Shown: positions 3,134-45,055 of the stretch, piece by piece
How positions within the stretch are numbered: position 1 is the first letter of the stretch
How the letters are laid out: each line of letters begins with the position of its first letter
Assembly (NCBI GenBank): GCA_016873715.1
Contig: VGWF01000001.1
Location: 64,394 to 128,393, forward strand
Direction of reading: 5' to 3'
DNA length: 64,000 nt
Origin: Lentisphaerota bacterium
Lineage (GTDB): Bacteria; Verrucomicrobiota; Kiritimatiellia; PWTM01
The notes under the pieces: generated by a model
Told to the model about the DNA's origin: nothing
The model's database searches: none
What the model saw: the letters and a program-made list of their open reading frames with translations, nothing else
Made by a program: the position numbers and the translations under genes

Positions 3134-3768
3134 AGGTGTTCCTGCATCAACTGGGATTCGTTCTTGCCGGTGGAGCGGCCGGATTCGCGAGCGGCATCCT
3201 GATGCCTGGCGCGGGCGGAGTTCGGGGTGCCATTCTCGGCGCCAGCATTGCCCTTGGAGCGGCCGTGCTGAATCCGTGGAAGGGTCGCGCGACGATGCCC
3301 GGGCTCGTCCGCGTCTTCGTTGTGGCCGTTCTTGCGGGCGCCATGGCGGCCGAGGGCATCATCGCATGGGAGTGCGTGCGTCCCTACGAGTGGAGTCGCA
3401 TGGAGCCTTTCGGGCATCACGCTCTCGACCCGCTGGCCGGCCAGGCCGTCGCCGGGAGCCTTTCCTACTCGATCACCCTGTTGTTCTGGATCCGGGCCCG
3501 CAGGGCCAGCCTTCACCATTCGTGGGCTTGGCTGGCCGCAGCGATCGTGTTCGGACCGGTCGCGCGGCTCGTGGGCGCAGGTGGTCCCGTGGCAGTTGAA
3601 GCCGAGACCCTGTTGGGAATGGCCCTCTTCGTTGCCCTGACCGCGCTGCCGTTTGCCGGATTCTGGTTCTACGCTGCACAGGTGGCCGACCCGGCCTGGA
3701 CGCGCAGGCGCTGGTTCCTAAGGACCCAGGGAAGGGTGCCACCGCCGCCCCTGCCGCCATCGGTCTGA
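3130..3768 (+). CDS. Integral membrane protein with ~6 predicted TM helices (paralog B, tandem duplicate)
   Basis: LAGGAAGFASGILMPGAGGVRGAILGASIALGAAVLNPW is paralogous to the upstream gene. ATG at 3130 overlaps the upstream stop. Confidence 0.65.
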   Translation: MKVFLHQLGFVLAGGAAGFASGILMPGAGGVRGAILGASIALGAAVLNPWKGRATMPGLVRVFVVAVLAGAMAAEGIIAWECVRPYEWSRMEPFGHHALDPLAGQAVAGSLSYSITLLFWIRARRASLHHSWAWLAAAIVFGPVARLVGAGGPVAVEAETLLGMALFVALTALPFAGFWFYAAQVADPAWTRRRWFLRTQGRVPPPPLPPSV

Positions 3769-3779
3769 CCTCCCGGCGT

Positions 3780-3822
3780 CCAACCCTTGGAAGTCGCAAA
3801 CCTTTCCTCTTCCAAGGGTTGG
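3780..3822 (+). terminator. Stem-loop terminator of the methyltransferase/radical-SAM/membrane operon
   Basis: Perfect 14-bp inverted repeat ccaacccttggaag / cttccaagggttgg with a 15-nt loop, starting 12 nt after the stop codon. Followed by ggaaattg, a weak U-tract. Confidence 0.4.
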
Positions 3823-31473: not shown

Positions 31474-32226
31474 CTACTCGACCAGGTCGACCAGGCGCCG
31501 GACCTCGGGGCTCGGCTGCGCCGGGGCCTGCCGGCCCTCGCCCGCACCCTCGCCGCCGCCCGCTGCGCCGTCGCCGGCGCCGGGGTTGTCAGGGCGGGGC
31601 GGGGGAGGTCCCTGGCGCGGACCGCCACCACCACCGCCACCACCGCCACCACCGCCACCGCCGCCGGGCCCGCGTCCGCCGCGGCGACGCCGGCCCCGGC
31701 CATCGCCGCGACCGTCCCCGCGACCGTCACCGCGCCCGTCGCCACGATGGTCACCCCGGCCGTCCTCGCCGCGGCCCTCGGAAAACCCGTCGCCGCCGTC
31801 GCCCATCTCGAGGGCCTTGCGGAACGTGCTTGCGCGCAGGGTCTGCGCGCCGGCCGCCGCGGCGTCCTTCTCCATCTGGGCATCCCCGCAGACGACCGTC
31901 ACCCGGCCCTTGCGGGCCGCCTGTTTCGCAATCTCGAGGATGCGCTCGCGACGTCCCGCGGCGTTGTCGGCGTAGTAGACCGTGACGCCCTGGAACTCGT
32001 CGCCGTCGGCCGCCTTGTGCAGCGCTTCGCCCTCGTAGACAACCGTGACGCGGACCTTCTCCTTCTCTGCGAACCGGCCCAGCCGGTAGAGCAGCCCGAT
32101 CATGTCCCGCGGGGACGGTCGTCCGGAACGGATGTTGAGGACGCCGACGCCGTCGAGAATGAATGCGGGGCCACCGGCCTCCGGATCGGAGGAGAACCAC
32201 CCGCTGATCTTGTCCAACAGACCCAT
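31474..32226 (-). CDS. NYN-domain (YacP/Rae1-like) putative ribonuclease with C-terminal RGD-repeat / poly-Gly low-complexity tail
   Basis: AFILDGVGVL ... VRVTVVYEG ... VTVYYADNAAGRRERILEIAKQAARKGRVTVVCGDAQ parallels B. subtilis YacP (LVDGYN ... VIVVFDAH ... TADE ... VATSD). Tail (DGRG)x4 followed by a ~15-residue poly-Gly run. Confidence 0.65.
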   Translation of the reverse strand: MGLLDKISGWFSSDPEAGGPAFILDGVGVLNIRSGRPSPRDMIGLLYRLGRFAEKEKVRVTVVYEGEALHKAADGDEFQGVTVYYADNAAGRRERILEIAKQAARKGRVTVVCGDAQMEKDAAAAGAQTLRASTFRKALEMGDGGDGFSEGRGEDGRGDHRGDGRGDGRGDGRGDGRGRRRRGGRGPGGGGGGGGGGGGGGGPRQGPPPPRPDNPGAGDGAAGGGEGAGEGRQAPAQPSPEVRRLVDLVE

Positions 32227-32464
32227 GAATGCTCCCGCTGACTGCCATCCACTGCCGCGCCGTGAGCGCGGTGCGCCCGGGGGCCGGTTCGGTCCGCCCC
32301 CCGCCGCCGGTCGGCCGGCCCCCGGGGCCGCCGCTTCCAGCCGGCGCACAATTCGCGTGCAGACTAGACGATGCGAAGCCCGCAATCAAGCACGGGTTCC
32401 GCATCGCGGAGGTCCGGGCGCATCTCCGTCCTGCGCAGGGTGACGGCCGGGGGCGGGTGCCAAC

Positions 32465-32904
32465 GTAGTCCTCACGCTCCGCGTGAGGACGTCTGCGTAA
32501 TCCGGATTGTCATCACGCGGAGCGTGATGACTACTATGCAGGGCCACCGCCGATCTTGCGCGGGGGGATGGCCGGTAGTCCTCACGCTCCGCGTGAGGAC
32601 GTCTGCGTAATCCGGATTGTCATCACGCGGAGCGTGATGACTACCCTGCGGAGCCACGGCCGATCGTGCGCGGGGGGATGGCCGGTAGTCCTCACGCTCC
32701 GCGTGAGGACGTCTGCGTAATCCGGATTGTCATCACGCGGAGCGTGATGACTACTATGCAGGGCCACCGCCGATCTTGCGCGGGGGGATGGCCGGTAGTC
32801 CTCACGCTCCGCGTGAGGACATCTCCGCAACCCGGATGGTCATCACGCGGAGCGTGATGACGACCCTGCGGAGCCACCGCCGATCGTGCGCGGGGGGATG
32901 GCCG
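32465..32904. repeat. Tandem array of 4 x 110-bp units, each with two perfect 10-bp-stem hairpins (BIME/REP-like). Not CRISPR.
   Basis: Units begin at 32465, 32575, 32685 and 32795. Each holds gtcctcacgc-tcc-gcgtgaggac and gtcatcacgc-gga-gcgtgatgac 41 bp apart. The inter-hairpin spacers are themselves repeated in alternating A/B variants, so these are not unique CRISPR spacers. Confidence 0.85.
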
Positions 32905-33015
32905 GAGGGGCGCATCTCCGGTCCTGTGCCGCGACGACGAAGGCGCCCGCACGATCGGGTCCATGAATCGGAGATGCGCCCGGAGGTCCGGGCGCGGGAG
33001 GGGACGACGCGAAGC

Positions 33016-33043
33016 GGCCCGGCGGGGGTGCCCCGCCGGGCCG
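33016..33043 (-). terminator. GC-rich hairpin downstream of the oxidoreductase gene
   Basis: Perfect 12-bp stem ggcccggcgggg / ccccgccgggcc with a 4-nt loop, 26 nt past the stop of the minus-strand gene. No U-tract. Confidence 0.3.
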
Positions 33044-33068
33044 CGGATCACCGGCCTGCGGGCGCCGG

Positions 33069-34406
33069 TTAGACGAGCGGGTCGCAGCCCGTCGAGATCG
33101 GGTGGAAGAGGCCGGGGCCCGGCTTCCACATCGACCGGTCGGGCACGAGCGCGTTCTTCGACGCCTTCAACAGCCAGTCCCACGTGAAGGTGCGGCCGGT
33201 CGTCGCCGCCAGCCGGCCGCCGATCGCGGTCAGGGTGCTCTCCGCGATGCGCATGCCCTCGTTGAGCGGCTTGCCGGCGCGGATGCTCTTGATCAGGTCG
33301 ACGTGCTCCTGGTCCATGCCGTTGACGCTCGGGCCGGAGTACTCCCAGATCTTCTCGCCCTTGTGGCCCATGATGCGGTTGGCGCAATCGCTGACCGCCT
33401 TGGTTCCGACGATCTTCTCGTTGCTGCGGCCCGTCCCCGGGCTGTGGCCGCTGAAGCTCAGGCACCGCGCCCCGTTCGCGTATTCGAACTCGGCGAAGAC
33501 GTGGTCCCAGATGTCGCCGTTGTACTTCGGCCACTGCGCGTCGTTCTTGAACGCGGCGGCGACCTTCTTCGCCTCCGTGCTGTAGTCGCGGCAGGCGCGG
33601 CCGCCGACGGCGGTGAACTTCTTCGGCGGGCCGTCGAAGCACCAGTTCATCACGTCGATGTTGTGGATGTGCTGCTCGCAGATCTGGTCGCCGGAGAGCC
33701 ACGTGAAGTGATACCAGTTCTCGCACTGCCACTCCATCTCCGTGAGCCCCTCCTTCATGCCGCGGTACCAGATGCCGCCGCCGTACCAGTAGCACTGGCC
33801 GCCGATCAGGTCGCCGATGGCGCCGCCGTGGATGCGCTTCATCAACTCGACGCGGCTGAACTCGTGGCGGCGCTGCGTGCCGCACACGATCGCCAGGCCC
33901 TTCTGCTCGGCGAGCTTCGAGGCCTCCATGAACACGCGGACGCCGGCGACGTCGGTCGCGACGGGCTTCTCGGTGAACACGTGCTTGCCCGCCTGGATCG
34001 CGGCCATCATCTGCCACGGACGGAAGCCCGGGGCGGTCGCCATCAGCAGCAGGTGCGTGTTCGTCTTGACGAGCTTCTCGTGGCAGTCGAAGCCGCCGAG
34101 GATCGCGTCGTCCGGGACGCGGATGCGGCCGGCGTACTTCGGATCCTTCATCAGCGCGTCGCGCAGCTTGCGCGCCTTGTCCGGGAACAGGTCGGCGAGG
34201 GCGACGACCACGATGCCGGGGTCGGCGTTCAGGCACTGCCGGATCGCGCCGCTGCCGCGGCCGCCGCAGCCGAGGAGGCCGATGCGGATCTCGTCCGAGC
34301 CGGCCGCGTGGACCGGCGCGACCGCCGCGCCGGCGAGGGTGGCGGCGCCGGCCAGGATGGCCGCGTCGCGCCCGGGAATCTGGGGGGCATTCATCTTCGT
34401 TTCCAT
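33069..34406 (-). CDS. Secreted Gfo/Idh/MocA-family NAD(P) oxidoreductase (glycosidase-like, GH109-type architecture)
   Basis: Signal peptide then IRIGLLGCGGRGSG Rossmann motif. Start at METKMN. Paralog of the next gene. Confidence 0.75.
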   Translation of the reverse strand: METKMNAPQIPGRDAAILAGAATLAGAAVAPVHAAGSDEIRIGLLGCGGRGSGAIRQCLNADPGIVVVALADLFPDKARKLRDALMKDPKYAGRIRVPDDAILGGFDCHEKLVKTNTHLLLMATAPGFRPWQMMAAIQAGKHVFTEKPVATDVAGVRVFMEASKLAEQKGLAIVCGTQRRHEFSRVELMKRIHGGAIGDLIGGQCYWYGGGIWYRGMKEGLTEMEWQCENWYHFTWLSGDQICEQHIHNIDVMNWCFDGPPKKFTAVGGRACRDYSTEAKKVAAAFKNDAQWPKYNGDIWDHVFAEFEYANGARCLSFSGHSPGTGRSNEKIVGTKAVSDCANRIMGHKGEKIWEYSGPSVNGMDQEHVDLIKSIRAGKPLNEGMRIAESTLTAIGGRLAATTGRTFTWDWLLKASKNALVPDRSMWKPGPGLFHPISTGCDPLV

Positions 34407-34440
34407 GGAAATGTCCTTTGGGTGAAGGGGTGCGCGGCGG

Positions 34441-35736
34441 CTACTTGTTCTTCCTCTTGCCGCCATCGGCCTTGGGCATGCCCGGCAGCTCGTAGATTCC
34501 CGGCACCGCGACCGGGGGCACCGGCAGCGCGTCGGACATTTTCAGGCCCGCCCGGGGCATGAGGTCGAGCTCGCAGCGCTGGATGAACCACTCGCGCTTC
34601 ATCTGCTGTCGGGAGTAGGCCGACTCGCGCGCCATGACCGCGCACATCGTGCTCTCGGTCACCTGCTGCGCCTCGTTGAGGTAGGCGCCGCCGCGGATGC
34701 TGGCGATCAGGTCCGTGTGCTCCTGGACGTAGGGGTCCGGGCTCGGTCCCTCGTACTTCCAGGGCTTCTCGCCCTGGATCGAGCCGCCGCAGTCGCTCGT
34801 GCCCTTCGTGCCGACGATCCGCTCGGAGACGTTCCCCGTCGTGTTCTCGATCTGGCGGCACATGCTGATCGTGCGGACGTCGTTCGGGTAGAAGAACTCC
34901 GTCCCGAAGTGGTCGTAGATGTGCCCGAACTCGGGGCCGGTCCGAAACTGGCGGCCGCCGATCGAGTGCACCTGCTCGGGCAGGGCGCGGAACGCCCAGT
35001 TGATCACGTCGAGGTTGTGTACGTGCTGCTCGACGATGTGATCGCCGGAGAGCCACGTGAAGTAGAGCCAGTTGCGGAGCTGCCACTCGACGTCGCTCTG
35101 GCCGGCCTCGCGGGGCTTCACCCACAGGCCGCCCATGTTCCAGTAGCACTGGGCGGAGACGAGGTCGCCGATGGCGCCGTCGTGGATGCGTTTCATCGTC
35201 TCGACGTAGCGCGGCTCGTGGCGGCGCTGCGTGCCCGCGACGACGGAGAGCTTCTTCTCCACCGAGGTCTTCGCCGACTCGAGCATCTTGCGCAGGCCCG
35301 CCGCGCAGACCGCAACGGGCTTCTCCGTGAAGATGTGCTTGCCGGCCGCGACGGCGGCCGCGAAGTGGATCGGACGGAACCCCGGCGGCGTCGCCAGGAT
35401 CACGAGGTCGATGCCGTCCGCCGCGAGGAGCTGCTGGTAGGCATCGAGCCCGACGAAGCAGCGGTTGTCCGGGACCTGGTGCTTGGTCTTGAGGCCCTGC
35501 AGGCGGTCCGTGAAGGCATCGGCCAGCGCGACGATCTTCACGCCCGGCGCGGAGGCCACGCAGTTCTCCGCGGCGCCGGATCCCCGGCCGCCGCAGCCGA
35601 TGACGCCGACGCGGATCGTGTCCGTCGCCGCCGTCCACCCGACGCGCGGCACCGCGCCGGCGATCGCCAGGCTTCCCACCGTCGCCGTCGAGTTCCCGAG
35701 GAACTGCCGGCGCGTCAACCCGCTCCGTCCTGCCAT
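34441..35736 (-). CDS. TAT-exported Gfo/Idh/MocA-family oxidoreductase (paralog)
   Basis: Twin-arginine motif TRRQFLGNS followed by IRVGVIGCGGRGSG. Roughly 50% identical by eye to the upstream gene. Confidence 0.8.
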   Translation of the reverse strand: MAGRSGLTRRQFLGNSTATVGSLAIAGAVPRVGWTAATDTIRVGVIGCGGRGSGAAENCVASAPGVKIVALADAFTDRLQGLKTKHQVPDNRCFVGLDAYQQLLAADGIDLVILATPPGFRPIHFAAAVAAGKHIFTEKPVAVCAAGLRKMLESAKTSVEKKLSVVAGTQRRHEPRYVETMKRIHDGAIGDLVSAQCYWNMGGLWVKPREAGQSDVEWQLRNWLYFTWLSGDHIVEQHVHNLDVINWAFRALPEQVHSIGGRQFRTGPEFGHIYDHFGTEFFYPNDVRTISMCRQIENTTGNVSERIVGTKGTSDCGGSIQGEKPWKYEGPSPDPYVQEHTDLIASIRGGAYLNEAQQVTESTMCAVMARESAYSRQQMKREWFIQRCELDLMPRAGLKMSDALPVPPVAVPGIYELPGMPKADGGKRKNK

Positions 35737-43765: not shown

Positions 43766-44824
43766 ATGATTCGGGCGAAAGTCGTCGGGGCCGGGGGCTA
43801 TGGCGGGGTCGGCATCGTCGAGTTCCTGCTGGGCCATCCGGAGGCGAGAGTGACGACGCTGGCCGCGGCCGCGGACGTTGGAATCGCCATGAGCGACCTC
43901 TGGCCGCATCTGAAGGGCTTCTGCGACGACACGATCCTCGCCTACGACGATCCCCGGGCGCGCGAGCCGGCGGACGTTGTCTTCTTCGCCACTCCCGACG
44001 GCGTCGGCATGAGATTCGCCGAGGAGGAGATGAAGCGCGGCGCGAAGATCATCGATTTCAGCGGCGACTTCCGGTTCAACGACGTCGCGACCTACGACGA
44101 CTACGCGAAGCGCGCGGGCAAGCCGATCCAGCACGCCGCCCCGCACCTGCTCCCCCAGTCGGTCTACGGCCTCGCGGAGTTGGAGAACCCCCGGCTCAAC
44201 GCCGAGGCGAAGCTCGTCGCGAACGCGGGCTGCTTCGCGGTCAGCGTCCTGCTCGGCCTCGCCCCCGCGGCGAAGCACGGGCTGATCCGGCCGGACCGCG
44301 TCATCGCGGACTGCAAGACGGCGATCTCCGGCGCGGGCAAGAAGCCCAGCGCGACGTATCACTACCCCGCGCGCTACGAGAACATGAACGCCTACAAGCT
44401 GGCCGGGCACCAGCACGTGTGCGAGGTCGAGACGGAACTGAAGCGCATCTCCGGCCGCGACCACCGGATCGTCTTCACGGCGCAGGTCGTTCCGATGTGC
44501 CGCGGCATCCTGTCGTGCCTCTACGGCGATCTGCTCGACGGCGTCACGACGGAGCAGGTCCTCGAGGCCTACCGGTCCTACCACGGGAAGCACCCGTTCG
44601 TGCGGATCTTCGACCGGAAGGCGACGGTCGGCACGATCCACGTCCGCGGCTCGAACTTCTGCAACCTGACCGTCGACGTGGACGAGCGCACGCGGACGCT
44701 TCGCGTGATCTCGCACATCGACAATCTCGTGAAGGGCCAGGCCGGGAACGCGCTGCAGAACATGAACGTCATGTTCGGGCTGCCGCAGACCGCCGGGCTG
44801 ATGAAGCCCGGGATGAACCCGTAG
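43766..44824 (+). CDS. argC: N-acetyl-gamma-glutamyl-phosphate reductase
   Basis: VVGAGGYGG Rossmann motif and catalytic-Cys region LVANAGCFAVSVLLGLAP. Confidence 0.9.
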   Translation: MIRAKVVGAGGYGGVGIVEFLLGHPEARVTTLAAAADVGIAMSDLWPHLKGFCDDTILAYDDPRAREPADVVFFATPDGVGMRFAEEEMKRGAKIIDFSGDFRFNDVATYDDYAKRAGKPIQHAAPHLLPQSVYGLAELENPRLNAEAKLVANAGCFAVSVLLGLAPAAKHGLIRPDRVIADCKTAISGAGKKPSATYHYPARYENMNAYKLAGHQHVCEVETELKRISGRDHRIVFTAQVVPMCRGILSCLYGDLLDGVTTEQVLEAYRSYHGKHPFVRIFDRKATVGTIHVRGSNFCNLTVDVDERTRTLRVISHIDNLVKGQAGNALQNMNVMFGLPQTAGLMKPGMNP

Positions 44825-44837
44825 CGGCGCTGCGCGC

Positions 44838-44935
44838 CGAACATCGAACGCCGAACATCGAACATCGAACACCGAACATCGAACACCGAACACCGAACAT
44901 CGAACACCGAACACCGGACATCGAACGCCGAACGC
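44838..44935. repeat. Heptanucleotide microsatellite (CGAACAY)14
   Basis: 14 consecutive 7-bp units (cgaacat / cgaacac / cgaacgc / cggacat) starting 14 nt after the argC stop. Intergenic. Confidence 0.85.
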
Positions 44936-45055
44936 GAACAGCCGCCAGACGCCGGTGACGGAGCCCGGCCCCATGCTCGGACCCCGGACAAGGGCACGGC
45001 GCGCCGCTTCCGAACCTCTGGACCTGTGAACCGCTGAACCCGCGCACCCGCCCCT

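Follow-up and report, generated by a model that had tools for sequence, protein, structure and literature searches.

An array of paired hairpins in a Lentisphaerota genome is probably the amplified core of a non-autonomous, MITE-like element

REPINs, in which an inverted pair of REPs with a conserved spacer forms the repeat unit, are usually seen as vertically inherited and lineage-specific. Bacterial MITEs such as Correia/NEMIS, ERIC and RUP form another class of small repeat. REPs tagged with GTAG, some of them in the PVC group, form dimers that are reiterated in tandem together with flanking DNA (Di Nocera et al., 2013; PMC3733652), and in Pseudomonas as many as four REPINs form ordered tandem clusters, flanks included (Bertels and Rainey, 2011; PMC3116915). 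The BOX element is classed as a non-autonomous transposable unit (PMC3184786). Here we describe a locus that has traits of both REPINs and MITEs.

We analyzed a stretch of 64,000 nucleotides from a Lentisphaerota bacterium, referred to below as the window, in which a 440-bp region at positions 32465–32904 (+ strand) had been predicted to be an array of four 110-bp units carrying eight perfect 23-nt palindromes at alternating spacings of 41 and 69 bp. Repeat finding and a pattern search both agree with this. Tandem Repeats Finder (TRF) reported 32465–32905 with a period of 110, 4.0 copies, 93% matches and a score of 763, and the four modules are arranged head-to-tail. Direct reading and the pattern search gave eight palindromes, all perfect and 23 nt long. 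Four have the form GTCCTCACGC-TCC-GCGTGAGGAC and start at 32468, 32578, 32688 and 32798; the other four have the form GTCATCACGC-GGA-GCGTGATGAC and start at 32509, 32619, 32729 and 32839, with start-to-start distances of 41 and 69 in alternation. The number expected by chance in the window is 0.02, and eight were reached in 0 of 100 shuffles. No further copy with up to three mismatches was found outside the array in the whole 64-kb window.

Each core module is made of a 70-nt REPIN-like doublet and a 40-nt linker. The doublets lie at 32465–32534, 32575–32644, 32685–32754 and 32795–32864 on the + strand, and each has two 26-nt arms, a REP with a GTAG head and an inverted REP that ends in CTAC, separated by a spacer of 18 nt. 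The second palindrome of a unit had been described as almost the reverse complement of the first, and the only departure from this is one symmetric change from C-G to A-T. Because the change is symmetric, every local hairpin is still perfect, and a long hairpin between the two palindromes of one unit would carry two mismatches. Units 1 and 3 agree at all 110 positions, and units 2 and 4 agree at 103 of 110. Thus, the true structure of the array is 2 × 220 bp with 213/220 identity, in line with the two alternating linker variants seen originally. The ORFs over the array are short and the same peptides recur in shifting frames. Because of this recurrence, and because 110 is not divisible by 3, we agree with the earlier view that these ORFs are artefacts. 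A CRISPR array was considered and rejected, as it had been before: successive palindromes face in opposite directions, and the 18- and 40-nt segments that would have to serve as spacers are repeats as well.

All eight array copies read GTAG-TCmTCACGC-TCC-GCGTGAkGA-C, or the complement of this in the inverted partner, giving a hairpin unit of GTAG head, 10-bp stem and TCC loop. REPs are short palindromic hairpins that are rich in G+C and whose 5′ GTAG head is unpaired, and the array copies have this form. An inverted pair of REPs with a conserved spacer, the repeat unit of a REPIN, was also found, and doublet and spacer recur together in 18 stretches of metagenome DNA representing approximately 13 loci. 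The original prediction had overlooked the GTA/TAC extension of each palindrome that supplies the 5′ GTAG head, as well as conserved end modules, terminal inverted repeats and a duplicated 8-mer beside the array.

These additional parts delimit a non-coding element of 566 bp at 32416–32981 (+ strand). Its layout is a left end module, four repeats of REPIN-like doublet plus linker, and a right end module. The left module is 49 nt long (32416–32464, + strand) and opens with the terminal inverted repeat GGGCGCATCTCCG (32416–32428); the right module is 77 nt long (32905–32981, + strand), includes a direct copy of the left end (32908–32929) and closes with the terminal inverted repeat CGGAGATGCGCCC (32969–32981). 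The terminal repeats are 13 bp long and are reverse complements of each other, and both modules are conserved at other loci. An 8-bp target site duplication (TSD), GGAGGTCC, borders the element, with the left copy at 32408–32415 and the identical right copy at 32982–32989.

An empty site was found in close relatives. The nearest homologue of the adjoining oxidoreductase (P0121, 97% identity) lies on contigs from other projects, L119 from ENA and L120 from Logan, and the NYN genes on these contigs are 98.6–99.2% identical to that of the window. The distance from the oxidoreductase stop codon to the NYN start is 268 bp in both contigs versus 842 bp in the window. In a four-way alignment, both contigs lack 574 bp (566 + 8), corresponding to the element plus one 8-mer, and both have a single copy of the 8-mer, GGAGGTTC. 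With the element and one 8-mer removed, the window is colinear with L119 from end to end at 96.6% identity, with three isolated 1-nt gaps, one of which is accounted for by the excised stretch being one base too long in this comparison. Read from these alignments, the filled and empty sites have the classical signature of transposition with an 8-bp target duplication, a pattern that matches the definition of a MITE (Delihas, 2011; PMC3184786). A more distant oxidoreductase orthologue (P0123, 82% identity) has other neighboring genes and was uninformative.

We also scanned metagenome contigs with a pattern specific to the 18-nt spacer of the doublet. Results from this gave the 18 stretches mentioned above (L093–L110), all from the JGI lake series Ga01941xx, which we take to be from Lake Tanganyika; the contig prefix is common to MAGs named K_Offshore and M_DeepCast. 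Removal of cross-sample duplicates left approximately 13 distinct element loci. The stretches have a G+C content of 0.68–0.73, like the window. Copies contain between one and six core modules with periods of approximately 110, 124–125 or 163 bp, and range in size from 236 to 865 bp depending on module number. All of the other copies are intergenic, occur in either orientation and have neighboring genes that are convergent, divergent or tandem.

Similarity between loci ends at the 13-bp terminal repeats, and locus-specific direct repeats abut them on the outside. These are GGAGGTCC in the window, CGCGCGAAC at L094, GGCGGCGC at L097/L101, GGCGGCGA at L103, GGCCGGGC at L107 and GGGCATTC at L096; the flanks of L098 had no clear duplication. 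At four loci (the window, L096, L099 and L107) the sequence beyond the right-hand TSD resembles the start of the left terminal repeat, which may reflect an element boundary other than the one given here or a target preference. The empty site reveals that most of this likeness pre-existed the insertion, which hints at a target preference.

The window holds a single cluster in 64 kb, and the approximately 13 intergenic loci are on contigs of matching G+C content from one metagenome series. These are short-read metagenome assemblies throughout, and assignment to the same genome is inferred from G+C content and shared repeats. One 35-kb contig (Ga0194126_10001823; L096, L108) contains three or more copies of the element and a 38.8-kb contig (L101, L104) contains two, giving a local density of up to about one per 10–20 kb compared with one per 64 kb in the window.

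Three traits of a MITE were found: terminal inverted repeats, a TSD with an empty site, and small size with multiple copies and no transposase gene. An element of the HUH type would have no terminal inverted repeats beyond the REPs and no TSD; here, 13-bp repeats lie outside the REPs and 8–9-bp TSDs occur at six or more loci. Together, these data give good support to the idea that the array arose by amplification of the internal module of a non-autonomous 566-bp transposable element at 32416–32981. This element is modular and MITE-like with a REPIN core, combining two known kinds of element in a new variant, and a genomic parasite is a likelier explanation of the feature than a gene or CRISPR. 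The earlier description of the array as REP- or BIME-like holds for the GTAG heads, the inverted tandem doublets and a link to RAYT genes described below. It does not hold for the array as a unit, which appears to form no more than the inner part of a larger element bounded by terminal repeats and a TSD.

The original prediction would have been refuted by, among other things, a palindrome present nowhere else in the genome. This check does not refute it: the palindrome is widespread, at 91 or more genome loci, and the same doublet was found in the 18 metagenome stretches. The genome loci come from a scan with the 23-mer of one genome per species. Among the matches listed, the great majority are from Planctomycetota MAGs (Gemmataceae, Isosphaeraceae, Pirellulaceae, Planctomycetaceae and Thermoguttaceae) with a handful from Verrucomicrobiota, and one MAG often contributes several loci. 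In all, dozens of genomes from these two phyla have the hairpin. Hairpins with a CGC-TCC-GCG core at the listed loci have the GTAG head in 120 of 139 cases, and the inverted pair is the commonest arrangement. Stem position 4 is A-T in 102, C-G in 88 and G-C in 18 members of the hairpin family and is mismatched in only 5; this covariation points to selection for pairing.

Perfect, regularly spaced 23-bp palindromes might also be double-stranded binding sites, in a 10-3-10 arrangement, for a dimeric DNA-binding protein at an operator, iteron or centromere-like cluster. We regard this as extremely improbable given that the palindrome is scattered singly or in pairs in the intergenic regions of many genomes, that the asymmetric conserved TCC loop and the one-sided GTAG head point to strand-specific recognition, and that presence or absence with a target duplication marks an insertion.

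Several observations concern the breadth of the hairpin family. The exact 23-nt hairpin (L001–L091) was found, among the matches listed, in at least five Planctomycetota families, in Verrucomicrobiota and in one Hydrogenedentales genome, which is unusually broad for one exact REP hairpin. GTAG-headed doublets of the Planctomycetota type were seen in a MAG labelled Alcaligenaceae (L033, L065, L084), and a Dehalococcoidia MAG (L002) has a copy of the hairpin that does not have the GTAG head; these copies suggest either mis-binned contigs in those MAGs or horizontal transfer. Matches in Streptomyces (L003, L011, L013, L016, L022, L064) have the form GTCATCACGC-yyG-GCGTGATGAC with no GTAG head, and their flanks are conserved between species. 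Because these flanks look like conserved coding sequence, the Streptomyces palindromes are probably unrelated. A literature search with the exact hairpin sequence returned only unrelated papers, and the sequence is absent from the supplements of PMC3733652.

A RAYT transposase had been named originally as a possible partner of the hairpins. A motif search of ORFs at hairpin loci gave two proteins with HUH/Y motifs, one at L072:1381–2046 in a Gemmataceae MAG and the other at approximately L024:4004–4654 in a Verrucomicrobiota MAG. These two proteins are 54% identical, and both genes have the hairpin family on either side. The L072 protein exceeds the cut-off of Pfam Y1_Tnp; its best NCBIfam match is REP_Tyr_transpos, but below the cut-off of that model. 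Its sole match among solved structures is 4ER8 (Escherichia coli TnpA-REP), with which the HUH, WQ and YIxxNP motifs align. There were 1903 homologues at E ≤ 1e-10, several of which are named RayT by JGI. Two homologues, P0057 (L111) and P0050 (L114), are on contigs from samples other than the Ga01941xx lake series and have this REP family on both sides of each gene. Thus, in four of the four other genomes examined (L072, L024, L111 and L114) a Y1 transposase gene is flanked by the same REP family, and the RAYTs that adjoin the hairpin share 54–67% identity among themselves. A tblastn search with the four RAYT proteins found no homologue in the window or in approximately 270 kb of related contigs. 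RAYTs are usually single-copy, so their absence from approximately 270 kb says little.

Two of these loci have additional features. The REPs flanking the RAYT gene of P0050 (L114:2886–2943 and 3726–3793) have the core CATGC-TCC-GCATG in place of CACGC-TCC-GCGTG, so that the stem is fully compensated. At L024:2840–4864 a single long ORF runs through a uroporphyrinogen-decarboxylase-like gene, REP doublets and the RAYT gene, and is an example of REP insertions making spurious fused ORFs.

The RAYT link raises the possibility that the array is a classical REPIN or BIME cluster, in which a single-copy RAYT copies the doublets via single-stranded hairpin intermediates and the outer modules are co-duplicated flanks. 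This would fit with the GTAG heads, the inverted doublets with their conserved spacer, the REP-flanked RAYT genes in 4/4 genomes and the flank-including tandem REPIN clusters of Pseudomonas (PMC3116915). It would also fit with another MAG of the same lake series (VGZJ01) that has ordinary REPINs of this family without outer modules. However, every locus retains the outer modules, whose ends are perfect inverted repeats abutting 8–9-bp direct repeats that differ from locus to locus, and only one 8-mer is present at the empty site. Also, HUH/Y1 enzymes of the IS200/IS605 type are not known to duplicate their target, we know of no REP/BIME or REPIN elements with terminal inverted repeats and a TSD, and the window and approximately 270 kb of related contigs yielded no RAYT. 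On balance, a classical cluster seems unlikely, and we prefer the reading as the core of a transposable element.

For the transposable element, we propose that a trans-acting transposase acting on the terminal repeats would have inserted the whole element. The terminal repeats and 8–9-bp duplications point to a cut-and-paste enzyme of the DDE type rather than a RAYT. No transposase with matching terminal repeats was found in approximately 270 kb of related DNA. We also searched for a parent element in the window and 19 related loci, and all terminal-repeat matches with up to one mismatch belong to miniature copies; the remaining matches are scattered, have two mismatches and pair with nothing. 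A blastn search of a plasmid collection with the single-module element gave no match. Even so, a RAYT encoded in another part of the genome may act on the REP doublets.

A more speculative extension of these ideas, which we offer only tentatively and consider doubtful, is that the element is a chimera of two transposition systems. In this case, a RAYT-type REPIN would have gained terminal repeats that insert with 8–9-bp TSDs, or would have been captured by them, and either a DDE transposase would spread the REPIN without a RAYT or a RAYT-family enzyme would duplicate its target; we know of no RAYT-family enzyme with the latter property. The same tentative proposal includes an unusually ancient or horizontally mobile REP-RAYT pair, which is what an identical 23-nt REP across Planctomycetota families and Verrucomicrobiota would mark.

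The host genes on either side are as predicted originally, and Pfam identified both. To the left on the – strand is a YacP-like NYN-domain gene (31474–32226; PF05991, 31.3 bits versus a cut-off of 24.6), followed by ftsK. To the right, also on the – strand and with its 3′ end toward the element, is a Gfo/Idh/MocA oxidoreductase gene (33069–34466; PF01408, PF22725). The longest ORF of the latter encodes 465 amino acids compared with 435–449 in its nearest homologues (445 in P0121). Because these are shorter, translation probably starts some 20 codons further downstream than 34466. The oxidoreductase stop codon is closely followed by a G+C-rich hairpin of host sequence (33017–33044, – strand) that is kept in the empty-site contigs; lacking a T tract, this hairpin was not called in a consensus terminator scan. 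The insertion point is beyond this hairpin, 79 nt past the oxidoreductase stop codon and 181 nt upstream of the NYN start codon. A scan of 32100–33200 for sigma-70 promoters and intrinsic terminators found no sites. A JGI contig of the Ga01941xx series (L092) encodes an identical NYN protein and breaks approximately 30 nt before the array.

Other repeats occur in the window. The tail of the NYN protein (DNA 31519–31769, the 3′ third of the gene) consists of (GDGR)n followed by poly-Gly and Pro-rich runs. Its DNA has tandem repeats of 12, 18 and 24 nt, and the NYN_YacP domain match is limited to residues 45–140. At 44837–44940 the heptamer CGAACAy is repeated in tandem approximately 14 times (TRF scores of 131 at period 7 and 157 at period 21). 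This array starts 13 nt after a stop codon (44822–44824) in the spacer ahead of the next plus-strand ORF and may be a slippage-prone tract.

The position of the element 181 nt upstream of the NYN start codon is compatible with an array of structured RNA modules, an ncRNA or 5′-UTR, whose role would be to regulate the NYN nuclease and ftsK operon downstream or to be processed by it. The original prediction included such an RNA as an alternative and proposed a link to the nuclease. Predicted folds are very stable, with z = –14.4 for a 582-nt RNA at the window locus and z = –6.4 for a 236-nt one-module copy folded as DNA; in these folds the terminal repeats pair and close the structure. There are also compensatory changes in the stems, but covariation is equally expected of single-stranded DNA hairpins that are recognized by a transposase. 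In a search of the window with Rfam 15, no family matched at gathering thresholds and a permissive search gave only hairpin matches far below threshold, the best being eukaryotic miRNA models that fit generic hairpins. The link to the nuclease was not borne out: L119 and L120, in which the element is absent, still have the NYN gene with its spacer, and NYN genes are present only at the window locus and its orthologues, empty ones included, and at none of the other insertion loci. Orientation relative to neighboring genes is also inconsistent, with copies in either direction among convergent, divergent and tandem genes. Thus, we consider a regulatory RNA array tied to the NYN-ftsK operon very unlikely, and a dedicated structured-RNA gene is unlikely. 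The element at the window locus is probably selfish or neutral DNA. Its hairpins would at most act, as a by-product, as a transcript barrier or stabilizer between the oxidoreductase and NYN-ftsK genes.

The repeats also suggest how the core might have expanded. Unit 4 has the spacer ATCTCCGCAAyCCGGATG, a variant that is common at other loci, and units 1–3 share another spacer; unit 4 therefore looks ancestral and the spacer of units 1–3 derived. Further copies of TGCGCgGGGgGATGGCCG, the motif that ends the linker, are found in the left module and where the right module begins. At other loci the repeat junctions fall at different copies of these short direct repeats, which explains the three period classes. 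We suggest that the whole element was inserted first and that the core then grew in place. Growth would have occurred by unequal recombination or replication slippage between short internal direct repeats, namely TGCGCrGGGTGAyGGCCGG and the repeated left-end motif, and we infer this to be the simplest cause. The identity of units 1 and 3 points to a recent 220-bp duplication, which would have been the final step of growth in the window. The same locus in another sample (L102), where the NYN protein differs at 1 of 150 residues, has only two units (1 and 4). Either the number of units truly varies, or units 1 and 3, being identical, were collapsed during assembly.

These results remove a candidate "structured RNA or defence-like array" from the window, and the insertion of a mobile element needs no gene annotation. 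The insertion also explains assembly breaks and variation at the locus. More generally, they document a REP family and its RAYT across the Planctomycetota-Verrucomicrobiota group, and a lineage whose REPIN is enclosed by transposon-like ends, with terminal repeats and target duplications, and varies in its number of core modules. Should the doubtful chimera proposal be true, the element would be a test case for REPINs gaining a second mobility route. The variable module number could be a strain marker in lake populations.

As a comparison, REPIN-RAYT systems (PMC3116915; PMC3733652; Messing et al., 2012, PMC3479197) and E. coli BIMEs share with this element a G+C-rich hairpin preceded by GTAG, doublets in inverted orientation whose GTAG ends are outermost, a conserved spacer and two alternating stem variants. 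In both, doublets are reiterated in tandem with flanking DNA, copies are extragenic and multiple, and REP-flanked RAYTs occur in related genomes. By contrast, the element described here has end modules, 13-bp terminal inverted repeats and 8–9-bp TSDs, and, unlike REPs in general, which tend to be lineage-specific, its hairpin is identical across two phyla and several families. With bacterial MITEs (PMC3184786) it shares small size (here 236–865 bp), non-coding sequence, terminal inverted repeats, TSDs, multiple intergenic copies, a long stable stem-loop fold (predicted here) and the occurrence of filled and empty sites. It differs from them in having a core of REPIN-type doublets, from a REP family associated with RAYTs, in variable tandem number. 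Pneumococcal BOX reportedly has the layout boxA-boxB(n)-boxC, and thus has in common with this element a left end, variable internal modules and a right end, as well as intergenic dispersal and stable secondary structure. However, BOX is unrelated in sequence and host phylum, and the GTAG-REP doublet core and clear 8–9-bp duplications set the element described here apart from it.
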